Part shown: positions 4,576 through 57,491 of the stretch, piece after piece
Numbering within the stretch: the first letter of the stretch is position 1
Layout of the letters: every line of letters begins with the position of its first letter
NCBI GenBank assembly: GCA_000092065.1
Contig: CP000594.1
Direction: 5' to 3' (one strand)
Origin: Ostreococcus lucimarinus
Lineage: Eukaryota
DNA length: 64,000 bases
The notes under the pieces: model-generated
Told to the model about the DNA's origin: nothing
The model's database searches: none
The model's input: only the letters and a program-made list of their open reading frames with translations
Made by a program: the position numbers and the translations under genes

Positions 4576-6309
4576 TCATTTACCGTCGTTGAGCGTCCAG
4601 TCGTACGCGCGCGTCGTTAACGTGACGTCTTTGCCTTCGTCGAGCGCGCGCAGTAAACCTTCGCGATGTTTGCCTTGGCGCATGTACTTTGAGACGTATC
4701 GCAGACGCTCGGCGTCGGAATCGCCGAAGTCGAATTTGTACCACTCGCCGACGATTTTACTCACCGCCGCCGACGTCGCGTCGCCGTTTTCGGAGAGCTC
4801 TACGTCGATTTCCGACTCGAAGAAGGAAAACGCCGCGTCTTCGAGCTCGCGGTCGATATTCTCAGCCGTGTAGACGCGAATGGGAGGGCACGAACGCGCG
4901 CCGCACACCAACGCAAAGTGAATTCGAGGATCCATCGGCAGCACGACGTGGTTCCTTCGCGGATCCTTCTCGCGAAAAGGACCTCGCGACAGCGATGGTT
5001 TTCCCGCGAGCGCACCGATCGTGGCCGCGCCCGGTCGGTTCCCGCGCAAGATTCCGTTCTCGATGTCGTCGCACGTGTACACGGCGCCGGCGACGTCGTA
5101 CGAAACCTTGGAGAAGAAATCCAAACGCTCGAGCGTGTTCTTGGGCGTGCCAAACACACACGTTCCGTGAATCACGAGGGCATTGTACAGATTGATGAAA
5201 AACGCCATGCGTTCTTCGCGCGACAACGCGTTCAAGTTGACGCGCTGAAGCTCTTCGCACGCTTCGACGAAATCTTTAAAGCCGTCGCTCTGACGAACGC
5301 CATCGTAATCCACCGCGCGCCCGTCGTCGCTGAGAAATTCGTCATAGAGCTTCAGTATGCGTCCGCGAACATCCTCCGCGACGATTTTAGCGTCTCGCGC
5401 TTGTCCAACGTACAAATTCGCCGCGTTCAACGGCGCACACCCCAAAGACGGCGCCTCGGATCGAAAGCGAAACAGCGGCGCGTCCGCGGCGTCGACGACG
5501 CGAAACGCGTGCGTCGCGTCGACGTCACCGATCAATCGCTCGCGCACCATGGCCGCCCCCAACCGCGCAGCCTCTTCTTCCGTCGACGCTTTACCGTTTT
5601 TCATCATCCAATCCACCGCATCTTTCGCCGTGAACACGCCCTTATGCGTCTTCACCAGCCCGAAGACGCCATCCGACAACCCGCCGAATCGTCGCTCCGT
5701 CCTTCGCGTCACCCCCCCCGTCGTCGCCGCCATCGCCCGCGCCACCGCCGCCGCGTCCCCCGCCTCATTCGATCCCTTATTCACCAATTTCGTCAACCAC
5801 GACGACGACGACGACGTCGCCACCGCCGGCGCTTTCGGCGTCTCCAGCGTCCCGTTCGCGAACGCCTCGCTCGCCTCGCGAAGCGCCCGCGGCGCGCCGT
5901 CCATCCCTCTCTCCCTCGCCTCCCGCGCCTTGGCCACGAGATCGCCGCTTTCGATCCCCGCGCACGTATCGTCGGCGCCGCCGTATATCTCTCCCCCCAC
6001 GAACACCTGCGGCACCGATCGAAAGCCCGCGAGCGCCGACGACGCCGCGCGCAGCGCCGCCGCGTCGTCGACGCTAATCTCATCGAACGCGATCCCCGCC
6101 TCGCCGAGCGCGCTCTTCGCGCGCTTGCAGTGCGGACACGACGACGTGCCGACCACCGTGACCGACGTCGCGCCGTCCGTCGTCGCCGCGCGCGCGCGCG
6201 ACGCCGCGCGAGTCGACGCGTGATGTCCCGAGCGATGACGCATTCGCGTCGCGCGCGCGTCGACGAGCGCGCCGATCGTCGCGCGGACGCGACGCGGCGT
6301 CGCGCGCAT
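4576..6309 (-). CDS. Glutaredoxin–DEP–DUF547 multidomain protein with N-terminal transit-peptide-like region
   Basis: Grx motif SCPHCKRAKSAL…VPQVFVGGEIYGGADDT. DEP-like GVFTAKDAVDWMMKNGKASTEEEA. DUF547 block FFINLYNALVIHG…HFALVCGARSCPPIRVYTAENIDRELEDAAFSFF. Start set to internal ATG M194 (MRATPRRVRATIGALVDARATRMRHRS…); the 193 codons upstream are His/Arg-rich antisense of the MINDY gene. Confidence 0.8.
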   Translation of the reverse strand: MRATPRRVRATIGALVDARATRMRHRSGHHASTRAASRARAATTDGATSVTVVGTSSCPHCKRAKSALGEAGIAFDEISVDDAAALRAASSALAGFRSVPQVFVGGEIYGGADDTCAGIESGDLVAKAREARERGMDGAPRALREASEAFANGTLETPKAPAVATSSSSSWLTKLVNKGSNEAGDAAAVARAMAATTGGVTRRTERRFGGLSDGVFGLVKTHKGVFTAKDAVDWMMKNGKASTEEEAARLGAAMVRERLIGDVDATHAFRVVDAADAPLFRFRSEAPSLGCAPLNAANLYVGQARDAKIVAEDVRGRILKLYDEFLSDDGRAVDYDGVRQSDGFKDFVEACEELQRVNLNALSREERMAFFINLYNALVIHGTCVFGTPKNTLERLDFFSKVSYDVAGAVYTCDDIENGILRGNRPGAATIGALAGKPSLSRGPFREKDPRRNHVVLPMDPRIHFALVCGARSCPPIRVYTAENIDRELEDAAFSFFESEIDVELSENGDATSAAVSKIVGEWYKFDFGDSDAERLRYVSKYMRQGKHREGLLRALDEGKDVTLTTRAYDWTLNDGK

Positions 6310-17753: not shown

Positions 17754-20700
17754 TTACGCCGCTTGGGCGAGCATTTGCGTGTCCGTCTTCAAGCGAGCCT
17801 CGTGAGACGAAATCGCCGCGCTCAACGCGTCGCAAAGCTGTTGAAGAGAATCGTCGTTCGCACAACGATCGCGCGCGTCGAAGATCAAATCCATCGGGAA
17901 CCAGCACGCAGCGTGCGCGGTGCGGTCGATGGCCGAGCGCTTGGCCCAGAACGAGAGTTCTTTGAGCGCCAACTGAGCGGCGTCCTCGGCGCGGTTGAAC
18001 GCGAGGTAGATGCGCAAGAGCGCCGCGGGATCCGCCCCGCGTCTTGCCATACCACCGCCGCTGAAAAGCGCAGTAGGGTTGACAAAACGTTTGATGAGCC
18101 AGCTCGGGAGCGCTAGCTTGGCGTTGACAGCGAGAATCGACCGAGCGGTGGCTTCAGAGAGGGCAAAGTTGCGTTCCGGCGCGTCGAAGCGCTCGACAAA
18201 GGCGCGCAACTCGTTCCAGTACGTGTCGACGGACGTGACCGGCGCTTCGACCCCGATTAATCCCGCGATCGCTTGCAAGTCGCTTGCTCGAGCGTTCCAA
18301 CGCTTCAACGCAGCGTCTTGTTCGGCTTGCAGGACGGACGCATCGCCAACTTGAGCCATGCTCGCGCGCGCCGCCATGGCACCAGCGATTAAAGCGAGCG
18401 AAGACGTGAGCTTTTCGCCATCCAACCACGCGGTGCAAAGCGTCTTGGCGGCCGCGAAGCAACCGTACGCAATCAAGCTTTGCACTAAGTCTTGAATGAC
18501 TTTTCGAGGTTCACTATCGACGTGAAGCATAGCGGTTTCGCAGCCCACGTGCAAGAGTTCTAGGCGAGCGGCGGAGAGCACGTACTCACGGGTGACGGTG
18601 GCCAGAGGACTCTTCTTCGTATCCAGTCCACTCGAAACAACATTTACTGAAGAAACATCATCGTTTCCTTCCATGTGTTCATCCTCTACGACCGTTTCAA
18701 AGCTCACCGAACAGGGATCCGACACCATGGCCAAGGCGTTGGCGGAGGAGAGCGCCGCCGAGGCATGACGCGCGAGAGCGTCGACCAGCTCGTCGTACGT
18801 TACGTCGGGTTTACGAGCGATCTCGATCGTGTGCTCGCTCAAACGATTGGCGTACTCGTGCATGGATACTGCCGCTTTGGCTGGGTCCCCACGACTCAAG
18901 TAGAATCCGTACAAGATCTCGCTCGGCGACGGCTGCGAGTCCACTGGCGCTGTGGACGCCCTACCCTCGAGCGCGTTTATGATTGTGTCGTAATGCGTTC
19001 GCTCGCTTTCATCCAAGCAAAGCGTGCTCAGCACCGCGCCACCGTTCTTCGCACCCCTTTCACAAACACTGGCGACGAGTCGACGCATCGCCGCCGCCTG
19101 GCGATGCTCGCCCGCAGTGCTCGCAGCGGCGCAATACGCCGCGCGCCAATCCCCGGCGTCCGTGGCGTATTGCAACGCATTGGCCCACAATCGTGCACTT
19201 TGGTTTTCATCATCTCGAACCTCATGCAGCGCTGCGTATGCGGCCGCCTGAGCGCCTGGAGCGCATCCGAGACGCTCGAAGAACAGCATGACAATTTCGT
19301 AGTACTCCAAGCGCGAGACGACGTCGTTTGGAAACGCGGCGTCGTCGGTACCCATCAGAATGCTTTGAATCACTCGCAACAGCTGCACGAGGAGGGAGTC
19401 GACTGGACCAGCGACTTCTGGAACAAACGCAGCCGCTCTACTGAATAATGCGATCGCGCTGTCGATCGAGGCGTTGCGCTCGGCGTTTGCGTCGTCGGTT
19501 TGATTGAGACCGACCAAATCCGCGCACGTCCACAGCGCTTGCAGAAACAGCGGTGCCGGCGCGTCGAACGGCGCCTTGGCGACCGATTCGCTTCCGGGGA
19601 CTTGCTGCCGAGCAAACGCAAGTAGCGTGCCGAGGGCGTCGACTTCGCCAGAGGCGTAGAGTGTGGTACCGATCTCTATCACTCGTCGCGTGTGAGACGA
19701 AGGTTCGTCGTCGCTGGCGTCGAGCGCTGAGGCGAGTAAGGTACCGGCGCTTCGCAAGCGATCGCCCACGGAAGAAGAGCATTCGAGAATATCAGGATGT
19801 TCTAAATTCGCGAGGGTGACCGCCAAGCGAGGCGGATCTTCGCGGTTGATGCTCAAGCTCGATCTGCGCTCCGTCAGGAGCCAAGAGGAGAGAATCGCCG
19901 AGCGATACGCGCTCATCGCAGCGGGCAAAGCATTGGTGATGGAGTCGGCGGCGTCAGCGGCGAAGCCAATCTTTGGACCGAGTCGAATGCATCCCAAAAG
20001 AAGCACTAATCCGCGCGACACCTCCACGCGTGCCCGAGTTTGTTGCTTGGTGGCGTTCAAAACCAACGCGACAAACTGCGATTCGTCCATCTCACTCGCC
20101 TCGTCGTCGACGGCGCCGAGGCTTCGTCCCTCCGATGGCAGAGTCCATTCATCAACGCGCTCACGAAGCGCTTGCGCTGGCTCTGCAAGCGTGCTCAGCG
20201 CATCTTGTAACAGACGGATGACGATTCTTTGCTTGGCGCGCCTCGAAGCCTTTCGGGATTTCGCTTGCGTCTCGGTTTCGTCGCTCTGCACCGCTGGAAA
20301 GACGTCACCGATCAACACTCCAGCGAAAGACTCAAGCCAATCTTTTGTGGTGTGGCTCGACGCTTCGATGTTTTCGTCGTAATTGTCGAACGCCGTCGCC
20401 TTGCTTGAGGTTGACGTGTCCACGCACAATCCACCGGCGATTAAATCCATCGCCGAGCACGCCGAGCTACCGAGAACGCTGTTCAAACGCGCAAACAGAG
20501 CGGTGAGCGCCGACACCACTTGTCGTTTACCACCACTAAAGTTCAACATCGGCGAATCCTCGTTCGTGATTTGTGCGCGAAGCAGAGACTCTTCAACGTC
20601 GTCGCCTGCCCGAATGGCGCCCAGCGCGTCGCCCGCGCGCAGTAGCACGAGGGACGACGACCACGACGCGTCCGTGTCCAAAAGGAAGGCCATCGGCGCG

Positions 20701-22241
20701 TGCGCGCGCGACCACTCACGAGCATACGTAGGCGCTACGCGACACCACGTCTCCACGACGCGCTGGATGCTGGCGTTCGCCCCAGCCGCGGCGACGAGCG
20801 CGTCGCTCGCGGTTTTCGCTTCGTCCAAACCGAGCTCATCGCAGGTATTTTGCAACGCCAGCTCCGAGCTCAAACCTCGTAGAGCGATTTCACTGGCTAA
20901 GCTGTTCGCCACAGAGGCCGCAGTGTACCCATTTAGCTTACCAAACCTTCGGAGGAGTTCAACCGCCGCGCCGTTGCCTCGACCGGCGTGCCCCCACTCG
21001 GCGAGCACGTTGGCTTCGACGTCGCCGCATCGAAGATCTCGCGCGCGATGGAGCGCGTCCAGCGGCCAGGACAGTAGAGTCGAAGTCGAAGTGGACGATG
21101 CGTCGTCGTCGTCGAAATTCTCGAGCGCAGCGACGACGCTATCGGGCGTCAGCGCGAGCGCACGAGCGACGCCCTTGGATCCCTCGATGGACGACCCGAA
21201 AGCCAACGCGCCGTGCTTGACCGTGTAGAACGCCAAGGTGGCGGCATCCGCAGCTGTTTCGATCGTTGTCGTTGCTGCGGCGGCTTCGTCGTCTGCCTCC
21301 ACTGGCGCTAATCTAGAGGACACTACGACGTTCAACGTGAGACCTTTCTCCGACGGCGCGCACGCGAACGACGTCGCCACGCGATCCGGCGCGGGCGTCT
21401 TCGTCCCGGGTGCGGGAGGCAAGTGCGATCCGCACACGCGCGAGACCTTCGCGGTTGCCGGTTTTAGCGAACCATCGGTTGTTCTGGCTTGCGAGGCGTG
21501 AATGGCGTTTGTGACGTCCCAAACCTGCACGAAGCCGTCCGACGAGAGCGTGGCCACCAAGTCCTTCGCCCCGACGCGCACGCACCGAGGGGTCACGTCC
21601 ACCACCGCCTGCCCGCTCGAACCCTTGATTGTGTTCCAAACTCGACTCAGCGTCGACGTCTGAAGCTCACACACCGTGGTTAACCTATCGGTTCGAACGA
21701 TCGCGCATCCGCTCGCGTCGCACAAAATAGCCGCCGCAGCGCCGCACGCCCCGATTCTCTGTACCCCACTCATCGAGCTCGGCGCCCGACCGACGATCGC
21801 TTCGTAGGATCCATCGTCATCGAAATCACCATCCAACCGCACGCGCACGCGCACGACGAACGCCCCATCGGCGGTCGCCAACACGACGTCGACCCGTTCG
21901 CCGTCCGACGCGCACGCGCACGACGGCGCCAACGCGCTCGGCGTCACCACGCGCACCGCCCACCCGCGCGTGCTCTTAATCACGCACACGTCTCCACCGA
22001 ACTCCCCGCCGACGTTCCACGCGATGACGTCTCCGGTCTTCGAGTCGACGACGCCGCCGCCGCGCGCCCCTCGGGCGCCGTCGCTCGGCGTCTCGCCGCC
22101 CTCGCCCCGATGTCGCTTCGACGCCCTCCAATCGTCCGCGGACGCCCGCACGCCCGCGTCGACGTCGACGACGAACGTCCGCGCTCGCGTCGTCGACGTC
22201 GCGCGCGCCGTCGCGCGCGGGGTTTCGCACGCGACGGACAT
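17754..22241 (-). CDS. Large (1495 aa) β-propeller + α-solenoid protein; possibly nucleoporin Nup160-like (tentative)
   Basis: Single uninterrupted ORF with a true ATG and normal composition throughout. The N-terminal ~450 aa are β-strand-rich (…DVIAWNVGGEF…SSDGFVQVWDV…); the remainder is helical-repeat-like. Length and architecture fit Nup160, but I see no diagnostic motif. Confidence 0.75.
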   Translation of the reverse strand: MSVACETPRATARATSTTRARTFVVDVDAGVRASADDWRASKRHRGEGGETPSDGARGARGGGVVDSKTGDVIAWNVGGEFGGDVCVIKSTRGWAVRVVTPSALAPSCACASDGERVDVVLATADGAFVVRVRVRLDGDFDDDGSYEAIVGRAPSSMSGVQRIGACGAAAAILCDASGCAIVRTDRLTTVCELQTSTLSRVWNTIKGSSGQAVVDVTPRCVRVGAKDLVATLSSDGFVQVWDVTNAIHASQARTTDGSLKPATAKVSRVCGSHLPPAPGTKTPAPDRVATSFACAPSEKGLTLNVVVSSRLAPVEADDEAAAATTTIETAADAATLAFYTVKHGALAFGSSIEGSKGVARALALTPDSVVAALENFDDDDASSTSTSTLLSWPLDALHRARDLRCGDVEANVLAEWGHAGRGNGAAVELLRRFGKLNGYTAASVANSLASEIALRGLSSELALQNTCDELGLDEAKTASDALVAAAGANASIQRVVETWCRVAPTYAREWSRAHAPMAFLLDTDASWSSSLVLLRAGDALGAIRAGDDVEESLLRAQITNEDSPMLNFSGGKRQVVSALTALFARLNSVLGSSACSAMDLIAGGLCVDTSTSSKATAFDNYDENIEASSHTTKDWLESFAGVLIGDVFPAVQSDETETQAKSRKASRRAKQRIVIRLLQDALSTLAEPAQALRERVDEWTLPSEGRSLGAVDDEASEMDESQFVALVLNATKQQTRARVEVSRGLVLLLGCIRLGPKIGFAADAADSITNALPAAMSAYRSAILSSWLLTERRSSLSINREDPPRLAVTLANLEHPDILECSSSVGDRLRSAGTLLASALDASDDEPSSHTRRVIEIGTTLYASGEVDALGTLLAFARQQVPGSESVAKAPFDAPAPLFLQALWTCADLVGLNQTDDANAERNASIDSAIALFSRAAAFVPEVAGPVDSLLVQLLRVIQSILMGTDDAAFPNDVVSRLEYYEIVMLFFERLGCAPGAQAAAYAALHEVRDDENQSARLWANALQYATDAGDWRAAYCAAASTAGEHRQAAAMRRLVASVCERGAKNGGAVLSTLCLDESERTHYDTIINALEGRASTAPVDSQPSPSEILYGFYLSRGDPAKAAVSMHEYANRLSEHTIEIARKPDVTYDELVDALARHASAALSSANALAMVSDPCSVSFETVVEDEHMEGNDDVSSVNVVSSGLDTKKSPLATVTREYVLSAARLELLHVGCETAMLHVDSEPRKVIQDLVQSLIAYGCFAAAKTLCTAWLDGEKLTSSLALIAGAMAARASMAQVGDASVLQAEQDAALKRWNARASDLQAIAGLIGVEAPVTSVDTYWNELRAFVERFDAPERNFALSEATARSILAVNAKLALPSWLIKRFVNPTALFSGGGMARRGADPAALLRIYLAFNRAEDAAQLALKELSFWAKRSAIDRTAHAACWFPMDLIFDARDRCANDDSLQQLCDALSAAISSHEARLKTDTQMLAQAA

Positions 22242-22516
22242 TGATGCGTTCGAATCGTTGAGCGATTTCGAGTCGTTTCGCGGCGGTTTCGTCGGCGCGA
22301 CGGGGTCTTCGGCGCGAGCGACGCGCGCGAGACGGTCGTCCGCGCGCGTTCTTTCGTCGGCGCGGCGCGCGAGCGACGGAAGCGCGGTAGCGCGCGCGAA
22401 AGTGCAGCGATAGGCGATGGGTGTGGCATCTTTTGTCGGCGTCGGCGCGGCGACGCGCGCGAGGACGGCGGTGAATGAATGGTTTGATATTTTATTGCAA
22501 CGCGTAAACGTACGTC

Positions 22517-22621
22517 TAGTTGCCCTTGGCGGCTTCTTTTTCCTTCTTCTTGAGCTCGCGCGCCGCCTTCGCGGCGGCGCCGGCGTCTTCTCCCAAATAC
22601 TGTTGCGCGTACACGTTCGAC
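22517..22621 (-). CDS. EF3: eEF3 terminal exon (exon 2): SNVYAQQYLGEDAGAAAKAARELKKKEKEAAKGN*
   Basis: The main ORF ends …DLDQ followed immediately by GTTAGT. About 79 nt downstream, ctgacag| precedes an in-phase 34-codon lysine-rich ORF. Fungal eEF3 proteins end in a basic Lys-rich tail. Coordinates ±1-2. Confidence 0.6.
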
Positions 22622-22700
22622 TGTCAGTCTCGGTTCGCGATCGAGGGTCGCATCGCGCGCGTTCGTGCGGTCGTCGTGTCGCATCGCATCGTCAACTAAC

Positions 22701-25700
22701 CTGGTCCAAGTCCCAATCCGAGTCTGTGGTTATGTCCTGGCCAGCGGCTAATTTAGCCGCTCTCGTCTTTTGCATAGCCTTGATCTCCTTGCGAGACAAC
22801 TTCTTCTTCGGTCCCTTGACCTTAACCTTGTTCCCGAGCGCGTCGACGGTGTCCTCTTGGACTTCGAATTCAACCTTGGCACCCTTAGCGGACTTGCCTT
22901 GACCCCACTTGTTACCTTCAATTTCAACAAAACCATTACCCGGAACGTTCCACGTTTCTTCCTTCAACGCATCGGCGAATTCGCAGTTGTGCGTGATGAG
23001 AAGAACGCCACCGTCGTATTCCTTGACGGCGCACGCGAGCGCGCCGAGGGCGTCGCGATCCAAATAGTTGGTCGGTTCGTCCATGACGACGATGTGCGGT
23101 TGCTGCCACATGGCGGAACCGAGCACGAGCTTAACCTTTTGGCCACCGGAAAGACCCTTGATGCGGTTGTGGGTACCGAATTCGGCATCCAAACCAAAGT
23201 CGATCAAGTGCTTCTCGACGTTCGCTTGCGTGAGCGGGCGCGCGTACAAGCCCGCGCGAGCGGCTTCGCGCTCGTCAACGCGGTTGAGGTACTTGGTGAA
23301 ACCATACTTTTCGAGCTTTTCGCGCTCCATCCAAGAGTTGGAGTCCATGGAGAGACCCTTCCATTGGCACTCGTACTCGTACTTGGACTTCTTTTGGCGG
23401 CGACCAAGAATCTTCTCGACGACGAGCTTGAGAATGGAACCATCCTCTTGCGGGACCGGAATCTTTTCCTTCATCATGCGCTCTTCCTCTTCGGTGTATT
23501 GCGCGGTGACCTTGGTCAAGTTTTCCTTGTCTTCGCCCGTGGAGAAACGCCAGCGGATGTATTCGTTCGGCGTTTTGTCCAAGTGCTGCTCGACGTGATG
23601 GAACGCGTGCTGCGCGACGTACGCGTAACGCATGTTCGGGTGACGCCAGACGGTACCCTGGTCCGGTTCGGCTTCACCGGTGAGAAGCTTGATGAAGGTA
23701 GACTTACCAGCACCGTTCGGGCCGAGGCACGCGACACGAGAGCTCAAAGAGAGCTGAATGGTCGCGTCTTGGATGATTTGACGCGTCGTGTTCGGGTACT
23801 TGAACCAGCACTTGGTCGCCTTGACGATGGCCTTGTCCTTGTTCTTCACGCCCTCGAGGAAACCCGGAACCGGGAAGATGAACTTGAGTTCGTCGTTGGA
23901 GAGCTCGGTGTACTTCTTCGCCGCCGGGCACTGCTTGACGAATTCGGTGAGATTACCTCTGTACGTCACCAACTTGCGGTTCTCGTAGTGAATGATGTGA
24001 GTACACACGCGATCCAAGAAACCGGAATCGTGAGACACAATCATGGAGGAAACTTGCGTTTGCGAGTTGAGGTACTCTTCCAACCACGCGACGTTCTTCA
24101 CGTCCAAGTGGTTCGTCGGCTCATCGAGTAACAAAATGTCCGCCTTCATGAGGATGGCGCGCGCGAGCGCGAGCTTCATCTTCCAGCCACCGGAGAGGGC
24201 GACAACCGGGCCGTTGATCATCTCGTCGGTGAATTGGAAAGAGGAGAGCGTGGAAGCGACAGATTCCTTGCTCGTGCCGTGGCCTTGGATGACAGAGTCG
24301 GAGAGAACGAACTCAACGACGTTCATCGTGTGTTGATCACCCTGGATGTCGTGCTCGACGTACACCGTGCGGAGTTCCTCCGGCGGCGGGAAGTTTTCGA
24401 CTTGGCCGTTGTTGATAGCCTTCATCAAAGTGGACTTACCGCAACCGTTCGGGCCGCACAGACCGTAACGCTTACCCTTCTTCATGTGAAGCGTGGCGTT
24501 GTTCAGCAAAATGAGCGCACCGTACGCCAAAGAGAAGTCGCACTTGCAAAGATCTTCGCCTTCTTCGTCCTCGACGACGAAGACCTTCTTGGAGGCTTCG
24601 TACACGGCGTGAGCGCGTTCGACGAGAGACTTGGTCATGGCATCGGCCTCGGAGAAGAAAAGCTTCAAGTAAGAGGTCGCGCAAGACTTGGTCCAGGTGT
24701 CGAGATCGAAGTTCTTCGCCAACAACGCGTTGGCGGACAAGGAGCAAATGTAGTCAAAGTACACCTTGACGCCGTCGCCTTGGACAAACTTCGTGACGTC
24801 TTCCTTGGAAGAACCGGAGGATTCGGCCAAAAGCGCGATGAACTGCTCGCTGACGGTTTCTTCGTTGTAGACACCCTTGCCTTCTTGGCCATCTTCGGCA
24901 CCGGTTTCGTTGCCCGCGGCTTGGAGCAAAGTCTTGTACGCGCGAGTACACACTTGGCGGCACTCCGGGTCGGCGACTTCGTCCATGGCGCGCTTCAAAA
25001 GCGGCAAAAGCTTGGGCAAGAACGGCGCGGCATCCATCGGATCTTCGACAAGTTTGCACATGTTGTCAATGATGACGGCAGACTTACGCTTGATCGGGGT
25101 GGTTTGCTGGAAGAACAAACCGCGCTGGAGAAGCGGACCCAGGAGGGAGAGCGTCGGGGATTCAACTTGTTGAACAAAAGTCGTCGCCGCGAGCTTGTGC
25201 ACGCATTCCGGAACTTCATCGACGTTGTTGATGCATTCAATCAAGGTCGGGATGAAAGGCTCGATGTCCAAGTTACCGACGCACGTCGCAACCTTGGCCA
25301 TGGACGCGGTGGACGCCTCCTTGACTTCCGAGCGCATGTGCACCATGACTTGCGCGAGCTCCGGGATGATTTCCGGCAAGTTCGCCGCGACCGCCTTGCG
25401 GTTGCGATCGACGAAAGCATCGAGCACACGCAAAGCAGCCATGGTGGACTGCCAGAACTGAGACTGAAAACCAACAAAGATCGCTCGCAACGCCGGGCGA
25501 ACCGCGAACTCGCTCAACTTGGGCGCGATGGCCGCCACCGCCGCGTCGCCAGCCGCGCGCACATTGCTAGACTTGTTATCACCCGCGAGCGTGATCGCAA
25601 CCTCGAGCAAATCAATCAAATACGGTTCCTCCGCGAACGAAGCCGCGTTCGCAATCTCCGTAATCTTTTCCGCCGCCGCCTTGCGCGCGTCCTCGTCCTT

Positions 25701-25787
25701 CTTCTTCGCCGCCTCCGTCTTGATCCCTTCGACGTCAGCCGGCGTCACCTTCGCCGCCGCGGGCACGTTGCACTTGCTCGGCGCCAT
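22701..25787 (-). CDS. EF3: Translation elongation factor 3 (eEF3, ABC-F ATPase with HEAT repeats and chromo-like insert), exon 1
   Basis: 1031-aa track ORF. N-terminal HEAT region, then two ABC cassettes ([14 protein letters not shown]…[14 protein letters not shown]…; [15 protein letters not shown]…[12 protein letters not shown]…DEPTNYLD) with a chromodomain-like insert ([24 protein letters not shown]), the eEF3 hallmark. True ATG at 25787. Confidence 0.9.
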
Positions 25788-26483
25788 TATTTACTTTTTG
25801 TCTGCGCAGGTCACGATCGCGCGCGTCCGCGGTTCACCGTCAGTCTTCCTTCTCCCGCGTCCCGTCCCCGCGCGCGCGAAGGGCTTTTTATGGATAGGCT
25901 TGCAGCCGCCACCGCCATCGGCGCGCTTTCGCGACCGTCTCTCCTCCCCCCATCGCCTCCATTCGCCGCGCGCGCGCGCGCGCGCCGTCGACCAATTTTA
26001 CACCATCGATCGCGCGCGCCCGCGCGTCCCGATCGAACGCCCGCCGCGTCGCGCGCGTCGTTCGCGTTCGCCCTCGCGCCGCCGCGCCGCGCGCCATCGC
26101 GCCTAATCATCCCTCGCGTCGCGCGTACCGTCTCCCGTGCGCGGGCGTGCGTGCGTTCGAGCGTCGAGTCGCTGGAACGTATTTATTTCGTCGTGTGTGT
26201 GCGCTGCGCGTCGTGCGTGACGGTCGCAGGCGAGGGAACGCGCGTGAGAGTGCCGCGCGGCGCGTCGCGCGCGACGGTCGCGGGCGAGGGCGCGCGCGCG
26301 TTTTCGCGATGCATCATGACGTGTGCGCATACAGTGAGACATCTATTACGATGCGAAGACGTCGAAAAACGCGCACATGGCGTTTCGAGCGCGCGCAATG
26401 CGATCGCCGCGACGCGCGCGGAGGCGCGTCGCGTCGGCGTCGCGCGCGGCGACGACCAACGACCGCGTCACACGTCGACGACG

Positions 26484-32983: not shown

Positions 32984-33780
32984 CTTTAATCTGCATCGCG
33001 AGAAATCGCACGCATTCGTCAGTCTCGCGTCCTTCGCGCGCGCGCGCGGGTGGATAATCCACTCCCGAGCGTTACTCAAAATAAACAATACTCGGACATT
33101 CGACTCGTATACGAGTATACGAAATCCCGATCACCCAAAACCGTATCTGATCGCGTCCCACCGCTGTCTCCGCGTCGCTTCCGTCGGGTCGTTGACGACG
33201 CCATCGAACGCGCGCGCGGACGCGCGCGCCGACGCCCTCGCGCCGCGCGCGCCGCGCGCGTGATGCGCAAGAATCTTTCGCACCCCTCGACGCGGCACCA
33301 CCCCCCCCTCCCGCGCGCGCGCGCGAGATCGACGCCCGCGGTCGACCTCCGCGCGCACGCGCCATCGTCCGTCCGCGCCGCGCCCCCGTCCGCGCGACGC
33401 CCTTCCGTCCGCGCGCGCGACGCCATCGCGCGAAGTCCTAACTCACGCACCGTATCCGCGAGCGCTCGCGCCGTTCGACGCCCCTCGCGCGCGCGCGTCG
33501 CCGACGTCGCCGCGCGTTCGAATGTCGCCGCGCGTGGCGACCGCGACGTGTCGGGCGTCCGCGATTTTGGCGCGAAAAAGATTTCCCATACTCCAGCGCG
33601 TTTTCGCCCATCGTTGCGTGTTTATACCGTATAGGCACCCTCGGCGATCCAGGGCAACTCTATCCGGGCGAGAGATTTTTTTAACTTTTCGGGTGTCTTT
33701 TTGCGCGTCGTGTCGAGTCGTGACTCGTCGATGGGGGGGGACTCGCGACCGCCCCCGGAGATATCTGACGTGGATTGTGT

Positions 33781-41515: not shown

Positions 41516-44263
41516 ATGTCGTCCTCGAGCGACGACGACGACGGGTCGGACGGCGGCGCGGACTTGGCGCGGCGCAAGCGCGCGAGGCGCGGGCGCGACG
41601 AGGCGATTTACGGGTCGTTTTTGGATGATTTCAGAGGCGGCGACGACGACGACGCGACGCGACGCGAACGAGGAAGCGCGCGCGCGCGCGAGCGATCGGG
41701 CGCGCCCGTGGCGTTTCGCGCCGCGAGCGCGGGCGGCGGCGGCGGTGGCGGCGGATTGGGGCTCGCGGCGAGCGCGGGGGCGAGCGGCGGCGGCGGCGGC
41801 TTCGGCGGGTTCGCGCGCGGAGGCACGATGACGGCGGACGACGCGATGCGAGGGACCGACGCGAACGGGAGCGATGATCAGAGCGATGGCGCGGTGAGCG
41901 AGGAAGAGGAAGAGGAAGAGGAAGAGGACGAGGATTTGTTGCCGTCGACGTTCGGGCAGAGGTGCGGGACGCGCGAAGACGCGACGATCGACGCGACGAC
42001 GCGCGCGAACGCGATGAAGGAGAGACTGACGAGCGATGATTGTTATTTTAGATTGGTCGCCGGAGCGGCGCAGCGAGCGAAGATGGCGGAGGATGAACGC
42101 AAGGCGAAGGCGGCGAAGCGACGAGCGGAGGAAAAGGCGGCTCGGGCGAGGAATAAGGATAACGAGGACGCTTTTGCGGGGACGAGCTCGCGCAGAGATG
42201 GCGGCGGACGTAACAGTCGCGCGAACGACGACGTGGGTTCGTTCGAAAAGCACACGAAAGGGATCGGGATGAAACTTTTGGAAAAGATGGGATACAAGAA
42301 GGGCGAAGGTTTGGGCAAGGGCGCGAGCGGTATCTCGCGAGCGTTGGAGACGCAATTGAGACCGAAGAATATGGGTATGGGTTTCAACAACTTTAAGGAA
42401 AACGTGAACGATCCCACTCGGTCGAGTAAACGCGAGGATGACGAAGGTGAAGCGAGCGAGGACGATATGGACGTCGACGACATCACGAGGGCTCGAGATG
42501 AAGCCAAGCGCGCGAGAGAGCAGTCTATGTGGAAGAAACGTAACGAGTTGCGGCGACAAAAGCGCGAATACAAGACAGCGGAAGAGCTGTTGGCGGAAGA
42601 GCAAGAGAACGCATCGTCAGTACAGACGACGACGAACAAATTAAACATCATCGACATGCGCGGCGCGCACGCGACGGTGGTCAACGCCAATGAACTTCAC
42701 AAGGCTCGGGTCGTGCGCGCTGGGGAGGAAGACATCATGCTCCCAGAGTTACAACACAATCTCAAGCTCGTCGTTGATCTCGCTGAAAGCGATATCACGA
42801 AGCTTGATGGAAAGATTCGAAGCGAGAAAGATACACAGGAGATTTTACGTCGGGAAAAGATTCGACTATCCAAAGTTGCTGAGGCCCACGACGAACTTGC
42901 GGCGAGAACTAAGAGCGCGCTCGCGCTCGTCGAGATGTGCAACACACATGGTAAGGCATGCGACACGGCCGAACAATTCGATGCGCTCACGCAATCTTGG
43001 ATGGAGGTTGTCAAGCAATTTCCAAAAGAGTACTACGGACACAGATTAAATCGTCTCGCCCTCGCGCACGCGGCGCCGTACGTGCGTGCGATGTACAAGA
43101 GCTGGGATCTAAGCAAAGATCCAACGCTTGGTGTTGATATTCTGAGACCTTGGCGATCTTTACTCTCACCGGAGCTCGTTCCGGATGAGTACAAGGGCGT
43201 ATTTGAAGACGACTCGTACGAGGACTTGTTACGAGATCCGATGCTTTCGAGACTTCGCCCGATTATTTCATCCAAGTGGGATCCAACGAAGCCCGAGGAT
43301 ATTTTGAATTTCGTTCAAGCGTGGTCTGACGTGATGCCCGAGGCACTCATGCGCGAAATCACGCACGCTCTGGTGTTGCCCAGGCTACAGCGTCGCGTCG
43401 GGGAGTGGGAGCCTACGAAGGAGCGCGTCGCGCTCCACGTTTGGTTCCATCCGTGGTTGCCCATGTTGCATAAAAACCTCAAGGATTTGTATCCTTCTAT
43501 TCGTCAAAAGTTCACGGTGTCCTTGGCAGAGTGGGAAGCGAGCGATTCGAGCGCGTTGACGCTCTTAAAGCCTTGGCAGAGAGTGTTCGAGGCGAAGGAC
43601 TGGTCATCGCTCATGCGCCGTTGCGTCACGCCCAAGCTCGAAGACGCCTTGGCTATGCTCCAAATCAATCCTTCCAACCAAGTACTGGACCCAGTACGAA
43701 CGGTGCTGAAGTGGGAGTCTATGCTTGGCCCGAGCGCGTTCATCACGCTTCTGGAACAGCACTTTTTCCGCAAGTGGCACGCCGCCCTGCACAAGTGGCT
43801 CACCGCAAGCAACGTCGATTTGGACGAGGTCGCGCAATGGTACATCGGATGGAAGACCGTATTCTCCGAAGAACTTCTATCCCACGAACGCATGCGTGTC
43901 CAATTGAACGTTGCCCTAGATATGATGAACCAAGCTGCCGCAGGCGAAGGCGTCGTCATGCCGAACGTTGCTGCACCGCAACCCACCGCACCGCTCGCGG
44001 ACGAACGGCCCGTGCCTCACCCCATGGATGAATCTACGATGTCTCTAAAAGAGATGATTGAAGAATTCGCCAACGCTCACGAGCTTGAATTCATACCGAG
44101 CGCCTCTGGTCGCCGCCACGACGGCTTAGCCGTGTACGTCTTTGGCGGCGTCAGCGTCGTCGTCGACACGGCGCGCGAATCCATTCGCGCCCTCATCGAC
44201 GGCGATTGGACCCCAATTAGCCTAGACCAACTCCTTGATCGCGCCCGCGCGATCAAGCGATGA
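41516..44263 (+). CDS. TFIP11: Tuftelin-interacting protein 11 / STIP / Spp382-Ntr1 homolog (G-patch + GCFC spliceosome-disassembly factor)
   Basis: G-patch: FEKHTKGIGMKLLEKMGYKKGEGLGKGASGISRALETQLRPKNMGMGF. N-terminal DEAIYGSF parallels metazoan TFIP11 (EATYGVWAE). A long helical GCFC-like C-terminal region follows. Start chosen at ATG M153 (MSSSSDDDDGSDGG…); upstream in-frame ATGs at 41366/41435 would overlap the LysM gene 5' end. Confidence 0.85.
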   Translation: MSSSSDDDDGSDGGADLARRKRARRGRDEAIYGSFLDDFRGGDDDDATRRERGSARARERSGAPVAFRAASAGGGGGGGGLGLAASAGASGGGGGFGGFARGGTMTADDAMRGTDANGSDDQSDGAVSEEEEEEEEEDEDLLPSTFGQRCGTREDATIDATTRANAMKERLTSDDCYFRLVAGAAQRAKMAEDERKAKAAKRRAEEKAARARNKDNEDAFAGTSSRRDGGGRNSRANDDVGSFEKHTKGIGMKLLEKMGYKKGEGLGKGASGISRALETQLRPKNMGMGFNNFKENVNDPTRSSKREDDEGEASEDDMDVDDITRARDEAKRAREQSMWKKRNELRRQKREYKTAEELLAEEQENASSVQTTTNKLNIIDMRGAHATVVNANELHKARVVRAGEEDIMLPELQHNLKLVVDLAESDITKLDGKIRSEKDTQEILRREKIRLSKVAEAHDELAARTKSALALVEMCNTHGKACDTAEQFDALTQSWMEVVKQFPKEYYGHRLNRLALAHAAPYVRAMYKSWDLSKDPTLGVDILRPWRSLLSPELVPDEYKGVFEDDSYEDLLRDPMLSRLRPIISSKWDPTKPEDILNFVQAWSDVMPEALMREITHALVLPRLQRRVGEWEPTKERVALHVWFHPWLPMLHKNLKDLYPSIRQKFTVSLAEWEASDSSALTLLKPWQRVFEAKDWSSLMRRCVTPKLEDALAMLQINPSNQVLDPVRTVLKWESMLGPSAFITLLEQHFFRKWHAALHKWLTASNVDLDEVAQWYIGWKTVFSEELLSHERMRVQLNVALDMMNQAAAGEGVVMPNVAAPQPTAPLADERPVPHPMDESTMSLKEMIEEFANAHELEFIPSASGRRHDGLAVYVFGGVSVVVDTARESIRALIDGDWTPISLDQLLDRARAIKR

Positions 44264-48820: not shown

Positions 48821-49476
48821 TTAGTCGTAGCGGTCGAGCTTGATTTGCATCGGTCGGTGCTCCAACTCGACGCCGTTGAAACCTTGGATCGCGGCTTGCG
48901 CCTGTTCGCGGGTTTCGAAGAGCACGGTACCCCAGCCCTTGGATCGGCCGGTGTCGGTGTGGCACACCGCAACGGCGTTCACGACGTTACCAACTTGTTG
49001 GAACACTTGGCGGAGATCCTCGCTGGTGGTGGTCCACGGCAAGTTGCGAACGACGATTTGCAAGCCGCTCGAGTTCTCCGGACGAGTCTCGACGCGCGCG
49101 CTCTTTTGGCCAGCTCCCGGACGCTCGACGCGAACGATGATCGATCGGCCTTGAATCTCAGAGTTGTGCATTTGCTCGATGGCGTTTTGCGCCTCCTCCG
49201 GCGTGGCGAAGTCGACCAAGGCCCAACCCTTGGATCGCCCGCCGCTTTGGCGCGCCACCTCGCATTGCACGACGTTCACGCCGAAGCTCGCGCAGTGCGA
49301 CGTGAGCGTTTCCTCCGAGGTTTCCCACGCGAGGTTACCGAAGTAGCATCGGCATCCGTCGCCGCCCGCCGGGGCGTCGCCGAGCACGCTCGCGCTCGCC
49401 TTCTTCGCGCCGCCCGCCGCCTTCGTCGGCGCCTTGTCTTCGCGCACCGTGATCGTGCGATCACCGAGCGGCGTGC
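48821..49476 (-). CDS. RNA-binding protein with three RRMs, exon 2 (RRM2 + RRM3)
   Basis: …CYFGNLAWETSEETLTSHCASFGVNVVQCEVARQSGGRSKGWALVDFATPEEAQNAIEQMHNSEIQGRSIIV… and …LQIVVRNLPWTTTSEDLRQVFQQVGNVVNAVAVCHTDTGRSKGWGTVLFETREQAQAAIQGFNGVELEHRPMQI… (RNP1/RNP2 motifs). The track ORF begins at GTG; the frame is opened by the acceptor ccgcag| (minus 49479..49477). Confidence 0.75.
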
Positions 49477-49649
49477 CTGCGGTTCGCCAACGCCGCGCGT
49501 TCCATCGTCAGTCTCCACCACATTCCCTCGTTTTCACCCATCTCGCGCGCTCGCGCCCGTCGCTCGCAATCTTCGTCTCGCCCGCGATCTCGATCTTCGC
49601 CCCGCGATCGCGTCCAATCCGCGCCCGATCCGCGTCTCTCTTCACGCAC

Positions 49650-56800: not shown

Positions 56801-57491
56801 GGCGACGTGTGCGGCCGGGACGCCGAGCCGGCGGCGCCGAACTTTACCTTTACGGAATCTAATGTTACACACGCCGTCGCGATCACCGCCGCGACGCCTT
56901 CGCTGTTCGACCACGCCCCACCGCTCGACGCTCGCTCGGCGCGGCGGGACCGAGGACGTGCGCGCCGCTTCGGTCGCGCTCTTGCTGCGGCGTCAACCGC
57001 CTCTTCGGCTCGGCCTTCGCCCTCGCGCGCGCGTCTTCGTCCGACCGTCCCGTCCGCGCGTCGTCCGCGACGCCGGAGATGATGTGATTCGAAATCGCCG
57101 CGATCGGATTCGAGCGAAACGTCGGGTGCGCGAGCACGGCTTGCATCCGCGTCGTCTCCCGCGCCACGAGCGCCGTCCGCCGCCTCGCCGTCGGCGTCTT
57201 CGCCCCGTTCCCCATCCCTCGCCCCCCGCCCGTCGCCGCGACGTCCGCGAGCGACATCGACAGCGCCCTGACGTCCACCGTCGTCCCTCGCCCGCTTTTC
57301 TTCCCTATTTTCTTCATCTTCGTCTCCGTCGCCACGCGAATCTCTGTCCCGACCGCGCGCGCCGAGCGCGTCCGCCGTCAGTCGCCCCGCGCGCGCCGTC
57401 CGTCGCCGTCGGTCGCCGCGATTCGCGCCCTCGAACGCACTCTCTAAAAATTTCGCGCGCCGCTTCGCCTTGCGCCGATGCGACGGCGCGA

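Follow-up and report, generated by a model that had tools for sequence, protein, structure and literature searches.

Evidence for a 101-nt last intron and a longer C-terminus in the eEF3 gene of Ostreococcus lucimarinus

The locus described here raises the question of where the coding region of an algal eEF3 gene ends. The window, by which we mean the whole stretch of 64,000 nucleotides that was analysed, is nuclear DNA of Ostreococcus lucimarinus CCE9901 and carries the eEF3 gene on the minus strand. A 1031-codon ORF (25787..22692, minus strand) is residue-for-residue the protein deposited as ABO99686.1, XP_001421393.1 and UniRef A4S749 ('predicted protein'), and also the EukProt entry. The ORF ends with ...GAT TGG GAC TTG GAC CAG|GTT AGT TGA and, as a preliminary description correctly stated, stops three codons past a CAG|GTTAGT donor (GTT AGT TGA). 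That description proposed a short intron starting at this donor and ending about 79 nt downstream at ctgacAG| (22621), past which the frame reads SNVYAQQYLGEDAGAAAKAARELKKKEKEAAKGN to a TAG at 22518..22516. The public protein would then be truncated and lack a Lys-rich tail. Is there such an intron, where does it end, and what does it add to the protein?

The identity of the gene follows from its domains. Pfam finds HEAT_EF3_N at residues 19-163, HEAT_EF3_GNC1 at 198-287, two ABC_tran stretches (the best at 428-559) and Chromo at 789-828, which is the architecture of eEF3 and eEF3L: N-terminal HEAT repeats and two ABC domains with a chromodomain inserted in ABC2. For the C-terminal 179 aa, the match to yeast eEF3 (7b7d_EF) has E = 1.4e-44. 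E-values do not discriminate eEF3 from eEF3L (Murina et al. 2019, PMC6723617), and by architecture and similarity the algal protein is placed in eEF3 and eEF3L as a whole. Its putative activity, judged from these domains, is that of a ribosome-dependent ATPase promoting E-site tRNA release.

A protein of 1056 aa (P0011) is encoded on 15 environmental contigs, all of 3.3-3.4 kb. Eight of the 15 were read (L001-L008), no two of them from the same JGI or ENA sample. Their alignment to the window gives three collinear blocks per contig (26255-26129, 25802-22701 and 22602-22472) at 99.8-100% identity, and in all eight the segment 22700..22600 is missing exactly, as in a mature transcript. The cDNA junction reads GACTTGGACCAG|TATTTGGGAG. 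A CAG repeat introduces a 3-nt ambiguity and thus four possible cuts, of which only the placement at 22700..22600 has GT-AG termini. When the window is spliced from 22701 (...GAC CAG) to 22599 (TAT TTG GGA), the translation has 1056 aa, is identical to P0011 and ends in ...DSDWDLDQ|YLGEDAGAAAKAARELKKKEKEAAKGN; the junction-spanning C-terminus is ...DLDQYLGEDAGAAAK, where the reference model has ...DLDQVS. Nucleotide differences between window and cDNA are synonymous in all cases in the four contigs checked. In two of the contigs, L001 and L002, a long poly(A) run follows ...CATTCATTC, at a point where the genome has ACCGCC. All of the cDNA-like contigs are confined to the gene, and none reaches the neighbouring SDHB or Nup160. 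Because of the poly(A) tails, the joint loss of both introns and the transcript length of the contigs, we infer that L001-L008 are derived from mRNA; this origin is read from the contigs themselves. The eight contigs are spliced, and read-through to the TGA occurs in none of them. The resulting gene model is as follows.

26129..26255, minus strand: exon 1, all 5' UTR (BLAST blocks of L001-L008; the 5' end is approximate, since the cDNA contigs begin at 26255 to 26235)
25802..26128, minus strand: intron 1, 327 nt, in the 5' UTR (missing in 8/8 cDNA contigs)
22701..25801, minus strand: exon 2, 14 nt of 5' UTR and codons 1-1029 (BLAST blocks; ATG at 25787..25785; 3' end ...DSDWDLDQ)
22600..22700, minus strand: intron 2, 101 nt, phase 0 (precisely missing from L001-L008)
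22695..22700, minus strand: 5' splice site GTTAGT of intron 2 (G of GT at 22700)
22692..22694, minus strand: in-frame TGA within intron 2, the stop of the 1031-aa reference model (...DLDQVS*)
22623..22629, minus strand: branch-point motif GACTGAC (presumed branch A at 22624, judged by motif and branch-to-AG distance)
22621..22622, minus strand: AG proposed earlier as acceptor (abuts the branch motif; unused in every contig seen)
22600..22601, minus strand: 3' splice site AG, context caacAG|TAT (cDNA junction)
22516..22599, minus strand: coding part of exon 3, 27 codons YLGEDAGAAAKAARELKKKEKEAAKGN and TAG at 22518..22516 (spliced translation equals P0011)
22472..22515, minus strand: 3' UTR, about 44 nt (AATAAA at 22496..22491)
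22473/22472, minus strand: poly(A) addition site after ...CATTCATTC (L001 and L002 run into poly(A) there)

The corrected model has two introns in total. Intron 1 has the signals GTACGC...GACTGACG...35 nt...GCGCAG, and its 3' end lies 14 nt upstream of the ATG. Exon 2 encodes the HEAT repeats, ABC1, ABC2 with the chromodomain insert and a polybasic tract of 20 residues. Intron 2 has the form GTTAGT...GACTGAC...CAACAG with a GC content of 0.61, and GC3 of exon 3 (0.79) is like that of exon 2 (0.76). We conclude with high confidence that 22700..22600 is an ordinary U2-type GT-AG spliceosomal intron, the last of two in the O. lucimarinus eEF3(-like) gene. The short phase-0 intron and the donor that had been predicted are those used in the cDNA contigs, and the annotation, from XP_001421393.1 and A4S749 to EukProt, is indeed a truncated 1031-aa protein ending in ...DLDQVS. 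The predicted acceptor is not the one in use: L001-L008 place it at caacAG| (22600), 21 nt downstream of ctgacAG|, and the intron has 101 nt instead of about 80.

In EST-confirmed O. lucimarinus introns outside chromosome 2, ACTGAC occurs in 87% and GACTGACG in 66.5%, the 5' consensus is GTGCGTG, and the branch-to-AG distance has a broad peak at 20-35 nt (Irimia & Roy 2008, PMC2483917). These values would apply if the eEF3 locus lies outside the atypical half of chromosome 2; the longest record with the protein has 708,927 bp. Measured as ACTGAC|Nn|AG, intron 2 with its true acceptor has a distance of 21 nt and falls within the 20-35 nt of the class. The distance is 35 nt in the eEF3 5'-UTR intron and 33 nt in the intron of a related locus, L013. 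The donor departs from the consensus: GTTAGTT agrees with GTGCGTG at +1, +2, +5 and +6 only, GTTAGT deviating at +3 and +4. Across the 64-kb window GACTGAC was not enriched (8 found, 7.8 expected), and the motif alone therefore has no statistical weight. Nor does the open frame downstream of the intron count as evidence in itself, since in this region of about 60% GC one other frame is open from just past the intron TGA and the third is open throughout, so that an open frame is not above chance. The reality of intron 2 is established by outside evidence, namely the cDNA contigs and the invariant Tyr and Gly just past the true acceptor.

Two AGs follow the branch motif within intron 2, the abutting one and the true one, and the choice between them can be put in mechanistic terms. 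The spliceosome would take GACTGAC (22629..22623) as the branch site. The AG at 22622..22621 would be too close to the branch adenosine for use, and the next AG, 21 nt on (caacAG, 22601..22600), would serve as the 3' splice site. With only a couple of nucleotides between it and the branch adenosine, an AG would be unable to reach the catalytic centre, which would explain why the next one is used. In the preliminary description the branch motif had been mistaken for the 3' splice site, and this put the acceptor 21 nt too early.

A search with the C-terminus gave relatives that probably belong to other Ostreococcus and to Micromonas and Bathycoccus, a few of them under the JGI label elongation factor 3. 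Each has ...D-S-D-W-[DE]-L-D-x-Y-[IV]-G-... and then a short Lys-rich tail. In an alignment of 16 sequences (the window and 15 relatives), W148, Y153 and G155 are invariant and the junction Q152|Y153 of the window is ungapped. Exon 3 would contribute the invariant Tyr-x-Gly of W-[DE]-L-D-x-Y-[ILV]-G, a motif in common with eEF3-like sequences of related green algae, probably Mamiellales; next comes a short segment rich in Ala, Lys and Glu. In the genomic DNA of intron-less relatives (L009-L012 and L017) the tail is contiguous with the ORF and the gene order SDHB-eEF3-Nup160 is kept; L014 and L015 also encode the tail contiguously, on contigs too short for gene order. That the tail is contiguous with the ORF in several lineages shows it to be coding sequence and not a 3' UTR that is open by chance. 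Splicing does append a C-terminal tail rich in Lys, Ala and Glu, as had been claimed, with 27 aa in place of the 34 predicted. AlphaFold2, run on the last 179 aa with the 16-sequence alignment, gave a mean pLDDT of 42.5, too poor for a fold search; the sole weakly confident stretches were weak helices at residues 122-137 and 160-177, which are the two Lys-rich stretches. Most likely the tail, which lies past the polybasic, eEF1A-binding tract shared with fungi, forms a charged extension of flexible or helical nature, and our best guess would be that it modulates partner contacts.

Several other readings of these data have to be weighed. The intron could have 80 nt (22700..22621) and end at ctgacAG|, with a 1063-aa main product whose tail is SNVYAQQYLGED...KGN. 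This AG (22622..22621) does keep phase 0, with an open frame downstream of it, but none of the eight cDNA contigs read uses it, it lies at a distance of 0 nt from ACTGAC against a species range of 20-35 nt, and seven residues (SNVYAQQ), found in no homologue of the alignment, would interrupt a motif that is free of gaps and has W, Y and G invariant in 15 homologues. The exact 1063-aa form is absent from the collection that has the 1056-aa form on 15 contigs, and an exact look-up among about 15 billion public proteins did not find it. This reading is highly improbable; the seven codons, which had been taken as exonic, are intron sequence, and the homologues join ...DWDLDx straight to Y-[IV]-G. 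We give equally little credence to an absence of splicing, by which the 1031-aa protein ending in ...DLDQVS* would be real and the downstream ORF a chance open frame in a GC-rich 3' UTR. The unspliced model is the public annotation, open frames are common near the eEF3 3' end, and the unspliced 1031-aa ORF is called on hundreds of contigs, of which those inspected are genomic. Against this reading, there are polyadenylated contigs without the 101-nt segment, the tail keeps its sequence, frame and stop position in lineages whose ORF runs straight into it, and the 1031-aa model cuts the invariant W-x-L-D-x-Y-x-G motif in half.

The cDNA-like contigs might instead represent not spliced mRNA but genomic DNA of wild populations, either an allele without introns or a retrocopy. 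A polymorphism of intron presence and absence does occur at this site in a related lineage, where L013 has an intron and L017, at 98% identity, does not. Such an origin is nevertheless very improbable for L001-L008, which lack both introns at once, are transcript-sized at 3.3-3.4 kb and never extend into SDHB or Nup160; two of them carry poly(A) that is not genome-encoded, and 24 of 24 inspected genomic contigs of O. lucimarinus keep intron 2. A further reading, compatible with the main one as an added layer, is regulated alternative processing, in which sizeable retention (giving the tail-less 1031 aa) or use of the upstream AG would make the intron a switch for the C-terminal tail. The donor is both non-consensus and polymorphic (GTTAGT, GTGGGT, GTCCGC), a stop codon 6 nt into the intron means that retention would give a stable, defined product, and the unspliced ORF is also present in 64 collection blocks in which the longest contig with it measures 2-5 kb, the inspected contigs coming from other blocks. 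However, there is no positive sign of regulated processing: all transcript-like contigs seen share one junction, assembled contigs reporting the dominant isoform only, and the Tyr and Gly lost upon retention are invariant in homologues. We consider such regulation unlikely, if less so than the three readings above. A degenerate pattern for both junctions, run on the metagenome contigs, gave 0 matches; it does match L001-L008, so that collection is without these transcript contigs. The 101-nt intron spliced to caacAG| remains the reading that we adopt.

The preliminary description also took the tail to be the ribosome-binding basic tail known from fungal eEF3. The yeast polybasic tract (1009-1031) lies inside the eEF1A-binding region (PMC6723617). 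The algal protein does have a C-terminal extension with a polybasic tract, but the tract (20 residues) belongs to exon 2, on the 5' side of the intron, and the truncated model already has it; it aligns to the yeast stretch KKKLSSAELRKKKKERMKK within the 896-1037 match to 7b7d_EF. As in Saccharomyces cerevisiae eEF3 (YEF3), the algal tract is followed by an acidic, aromatic-containing motif, and the algal stretch from the tract to ...DSDWDLD corresponds to yeast KKKLSSAELRKKKKERMKKKK. Alignment with yeast stops at query ...AAGQDIT (chain residue 1037 of 1044); yeast eEF3 itself ends in an acidic ...SSDEEF. The match stops before the exon-3 tail.

More distant proteins give the same picture. An exhaustive search of 1.8 billion representative proteins returned 99 matches to the C-terminus. 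The distant full-length eEF3-like proteins among them mostly end at the acidic motif, near positions 90-100 of the 127-residue query, with ends such as ...GEEVTDSEDD, ...VFSDEDE and ...GMASESEED, and a few have short unrelated extensions. Among the matches with a recognisable eEF3 C-terminus, alignment of Y-x-G together with a short basic tail is found in close algal relatives only; P0053, P0082 and P0108 also reach the query's end, by way of a Lys-rich tail that is longer and of another kind. Since the distant proteins end at the acidic motif and the algal relatives go on, exon 3 is an addition common to the green-algal relatives. Yeast eEF3 and most distant eEF3 and eEF3L proteins stop about at the intron position, and Y-[ILV]-G with the Ala/Lys/Glu tail is an extra of the close green-algal relatives. 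Neither the yeast alignment nor the distant homologues indicate homology of the exon-3 tail to the fungal polybasic eEF1A-binding tract, and the link between the two, which holds only loosely, was overstated. In the yeast cryo-EM structure 68 residues at the C-terminal end of the tagged construct, counting the TAP-tag, are not resolved, and the eEF3 C-terminus is distant from the ribosome (Ranjan et al., PMC7957392). The label 'ribosome-binding-type' is therefore not well founded even in yeast.

Within O. lucimarinus the intron is conserved. Ten genomic contigs of the species are identical to the window over the region compared, and intron 2 is present in 24/24 genomic contigs of the species inspected (L021-L034 and L036-L045). 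Variant populations differ around the donor only: GTGGGT stands for GTTAGT, the last exon base is changed synonymously (CAA|GT), or the donor is GTCCGC with an 11-nt insertion. All of these donor variants keep the branch motif, the acceptor and exon 3 without change.

The same gene end looks different in related Ostreococcus lineages, where intron 2 is missing or a different intron lies 7-9 nt upstream. L013 has a 183-nt AT-rich intron 9 nt upstream, TGGGAG|GTGCGT...GACTGAC...TATATAG|TTG, and L017, the 98% identical sequence, has no intron here. L035 carries a copy of the L013 intron, about 98% identical, that is shifted 2 nt 5' into phase 1 (TGGG|GTGCGT...TTATAG|AGTTG); a 2-nt loss at the exon edge is offset by a T-to-G change that creates a new AG, and the spliced frame is intact. 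This second intron (180-183 nt) is conserved at about 98% between lineages, against 95% for the flanking exon. The 101-nt intron was seen in O. lucimarinus-type populations only. In local alignment the O. lucimarinus intron scored 21 against the L013 intron, which is not significant (shuffles: mean 13.4, maximum 22). One tentative interpretation, which we hold to be possible but not probable, is that the 3' end of eEF3 is a hot spot of recent intron turnover in Ostreococcus. If this were true, and independent recent gains or gains via gene flow had occurred instead of repeated precise losses, it would point to ongoing intron gain and sliding in an intron-poor genome. The Introner elements of Micromonas (PMC4540971) are likewise lineage-restricted within the Mamiellophyceae and show presence/absence between close relatives. 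They occur in repeated copies, unlike intron 2, for which none was found: when the two window introns and that of L013 were compared by BLAST with the window and related loci, short low-complexity matches were all that appeared, and an exact scan of metagenome contigs for the intron 2 core, a search that divergent copies escape, gave 10 matches, all at the same locus. A possible RNA gene hosted in either intron was also considered and rejected: Rfam on 22300..26400 reported a lone sub-threshold gntR-DTE (28.2 bits against a gathering threshold of 63.6), taken as chance, and no snoRNA or other RNA.

What is new here is the correction of a reference gene model; the kind of intron is already known. 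The protein in XP_001421393.1, A4S749 and EukProt is missing two invariant motif residues and a 25-residue charged tail, and has two spurious residues added. The host is a model picoalga in which this translation factor is essential and highly expressed, and users of the reference proteome who align, model or express it inherit the error. The corrected gene model supplies a product of 1056 aa, two introns, UTRs and a poly(A) site. The locus also exposes a trap for intron prediction: in genomes with a strong branch motif, an AG abutting the branch site can mimic an acceptor with the frame kept. The wider significance is modest, the intron being mechanistically ordinary.

Compared with the reference model (XP_001421393.1, ABO99686.1, A4S749; 1031 aa), the spliced product is the same over residues 1-1029; the reference reads through the donor, adds VS and a stop, and is without the 27-aa last exon, the 5'-UTR intron and the UTRs. 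The protein can also be set beside the eEF3L subfamily of ABCF ATPases from algae and protists (PMC6723617), with which it has in common the HEAT / ABC1 / ABC2-chromodomain order and an eEF3-like C-terminal extension, and its host is an alga. Intron 2 differs from the class of O. lucimarinus introns outside chromosome 2 (PMC2483917) in its donor GTTAGT, in a 3' end of CAACAG and not the preferred CGCAG, and in the A that follows the branch motif (GACTGACA), where the consensus has G. In the other respects it is like that class: it is a GT-AG intron with (G)ACTGAC, 21 nt to the AG and no polypyrimidine tract. A further likeness is that the host gene is highly expressed, and introns are in excess in highly expressed genes (PMC2367439).

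The eEF3 transcript also carries a 327-nt intron in its 5' UTR, which is spliced out in all eight cDNA contigs (transcript-like environmental contigs) and follows an untranslated first exon:

Window 26255..26129 (-), eEF3 exon 1, wholly untranslated
Window 26128..25802 (-), eEF3 5'-UTR intron, 327 nt

This intron has the donor GTACGC, then GACTGACG, then 35 nt and GCGCAG, and the ATG lies 14 nt downstream of its end. As far as can be told, the reference eEF3 model does not include it. Elsewhere in the window, GACTGACG recurs at four places that each combine a GTGCGT-like donor on the upstream side with an AG 19-31 nt further on. Judged by these sequence signals, they may be introns of the species-typical class belonging to other genes:

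Window 33358..32991 (-), candidate intron
Window 41894..42051 (+), candidate intron
Window 49649..49476 (-), candidate intron
Window 57440..57343 (-), candidate intron

At the 3' end of eEF3, Rfam gave a match to the bacterial sRNA family gntR-DTE (window 22418..22595, minus strand) that spans part of exon 3 and the 3' UTR; its 28.2 bits fall short of the family's gathering score of 63.6, and it was taken as chance. The adjoining gene is Nup160:

Window 22241..17754 (-), Nup160

The 90%-identity protein cluster that holds O. lucimarinus eEF3 has a Nup160 protein (P0002) as its representative and mixes eEF3 and Nup160 sequences, presumably a clustering artefact of fused gene calls. In the homology search with the eEF3 C-terminus, this Nup160-represented cluster masked the species' own eEF3.

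Among the contigs compared, the 101-nt intron near the eEF3 3' end was found in O. lucimarinus-type populations only. Comparison of window 22695..22701 with L031-L034, L036-L043 and L045 (O. lucimarinus-type genomic contigs) showed that the donor region is its sole variable part, reading GTTAGT, GTGGGT (sometimes with CAA|GT) or GTCCGC with an 11-nt insertion; from TTGACG through the acceptor there are no differences. The related lineages L009-L012, L014-L016 and L017 have no intron at this position, and L009-L012 and L017 share the gene order SDHB-eEF3-Nup160.

Two other Ostreococcus lineages (L013 and L035) have eEF3 split by an AT-rich intron of 180-183 nt, unlike that of the window; relative to the O. 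lucimarinus site, it lies 7-9 nt upstream:

L013 4448..4630, AT-rich eEF3 intron
L035 477..656, AT-rich eEF3 intron
L017 ~5566..5579, equivalent site, intron-less

L017, with 98% identity to L013, precisely lacks this intron. The L013 and L035 copies are ~98% identical and offset by 2 nt, in phase 0 and phase 1 respectively, with compensating changes. The AT-rich intron (~98%) is more conserved than either the adjoining exon (95%) or the 3' flank (83-88%).
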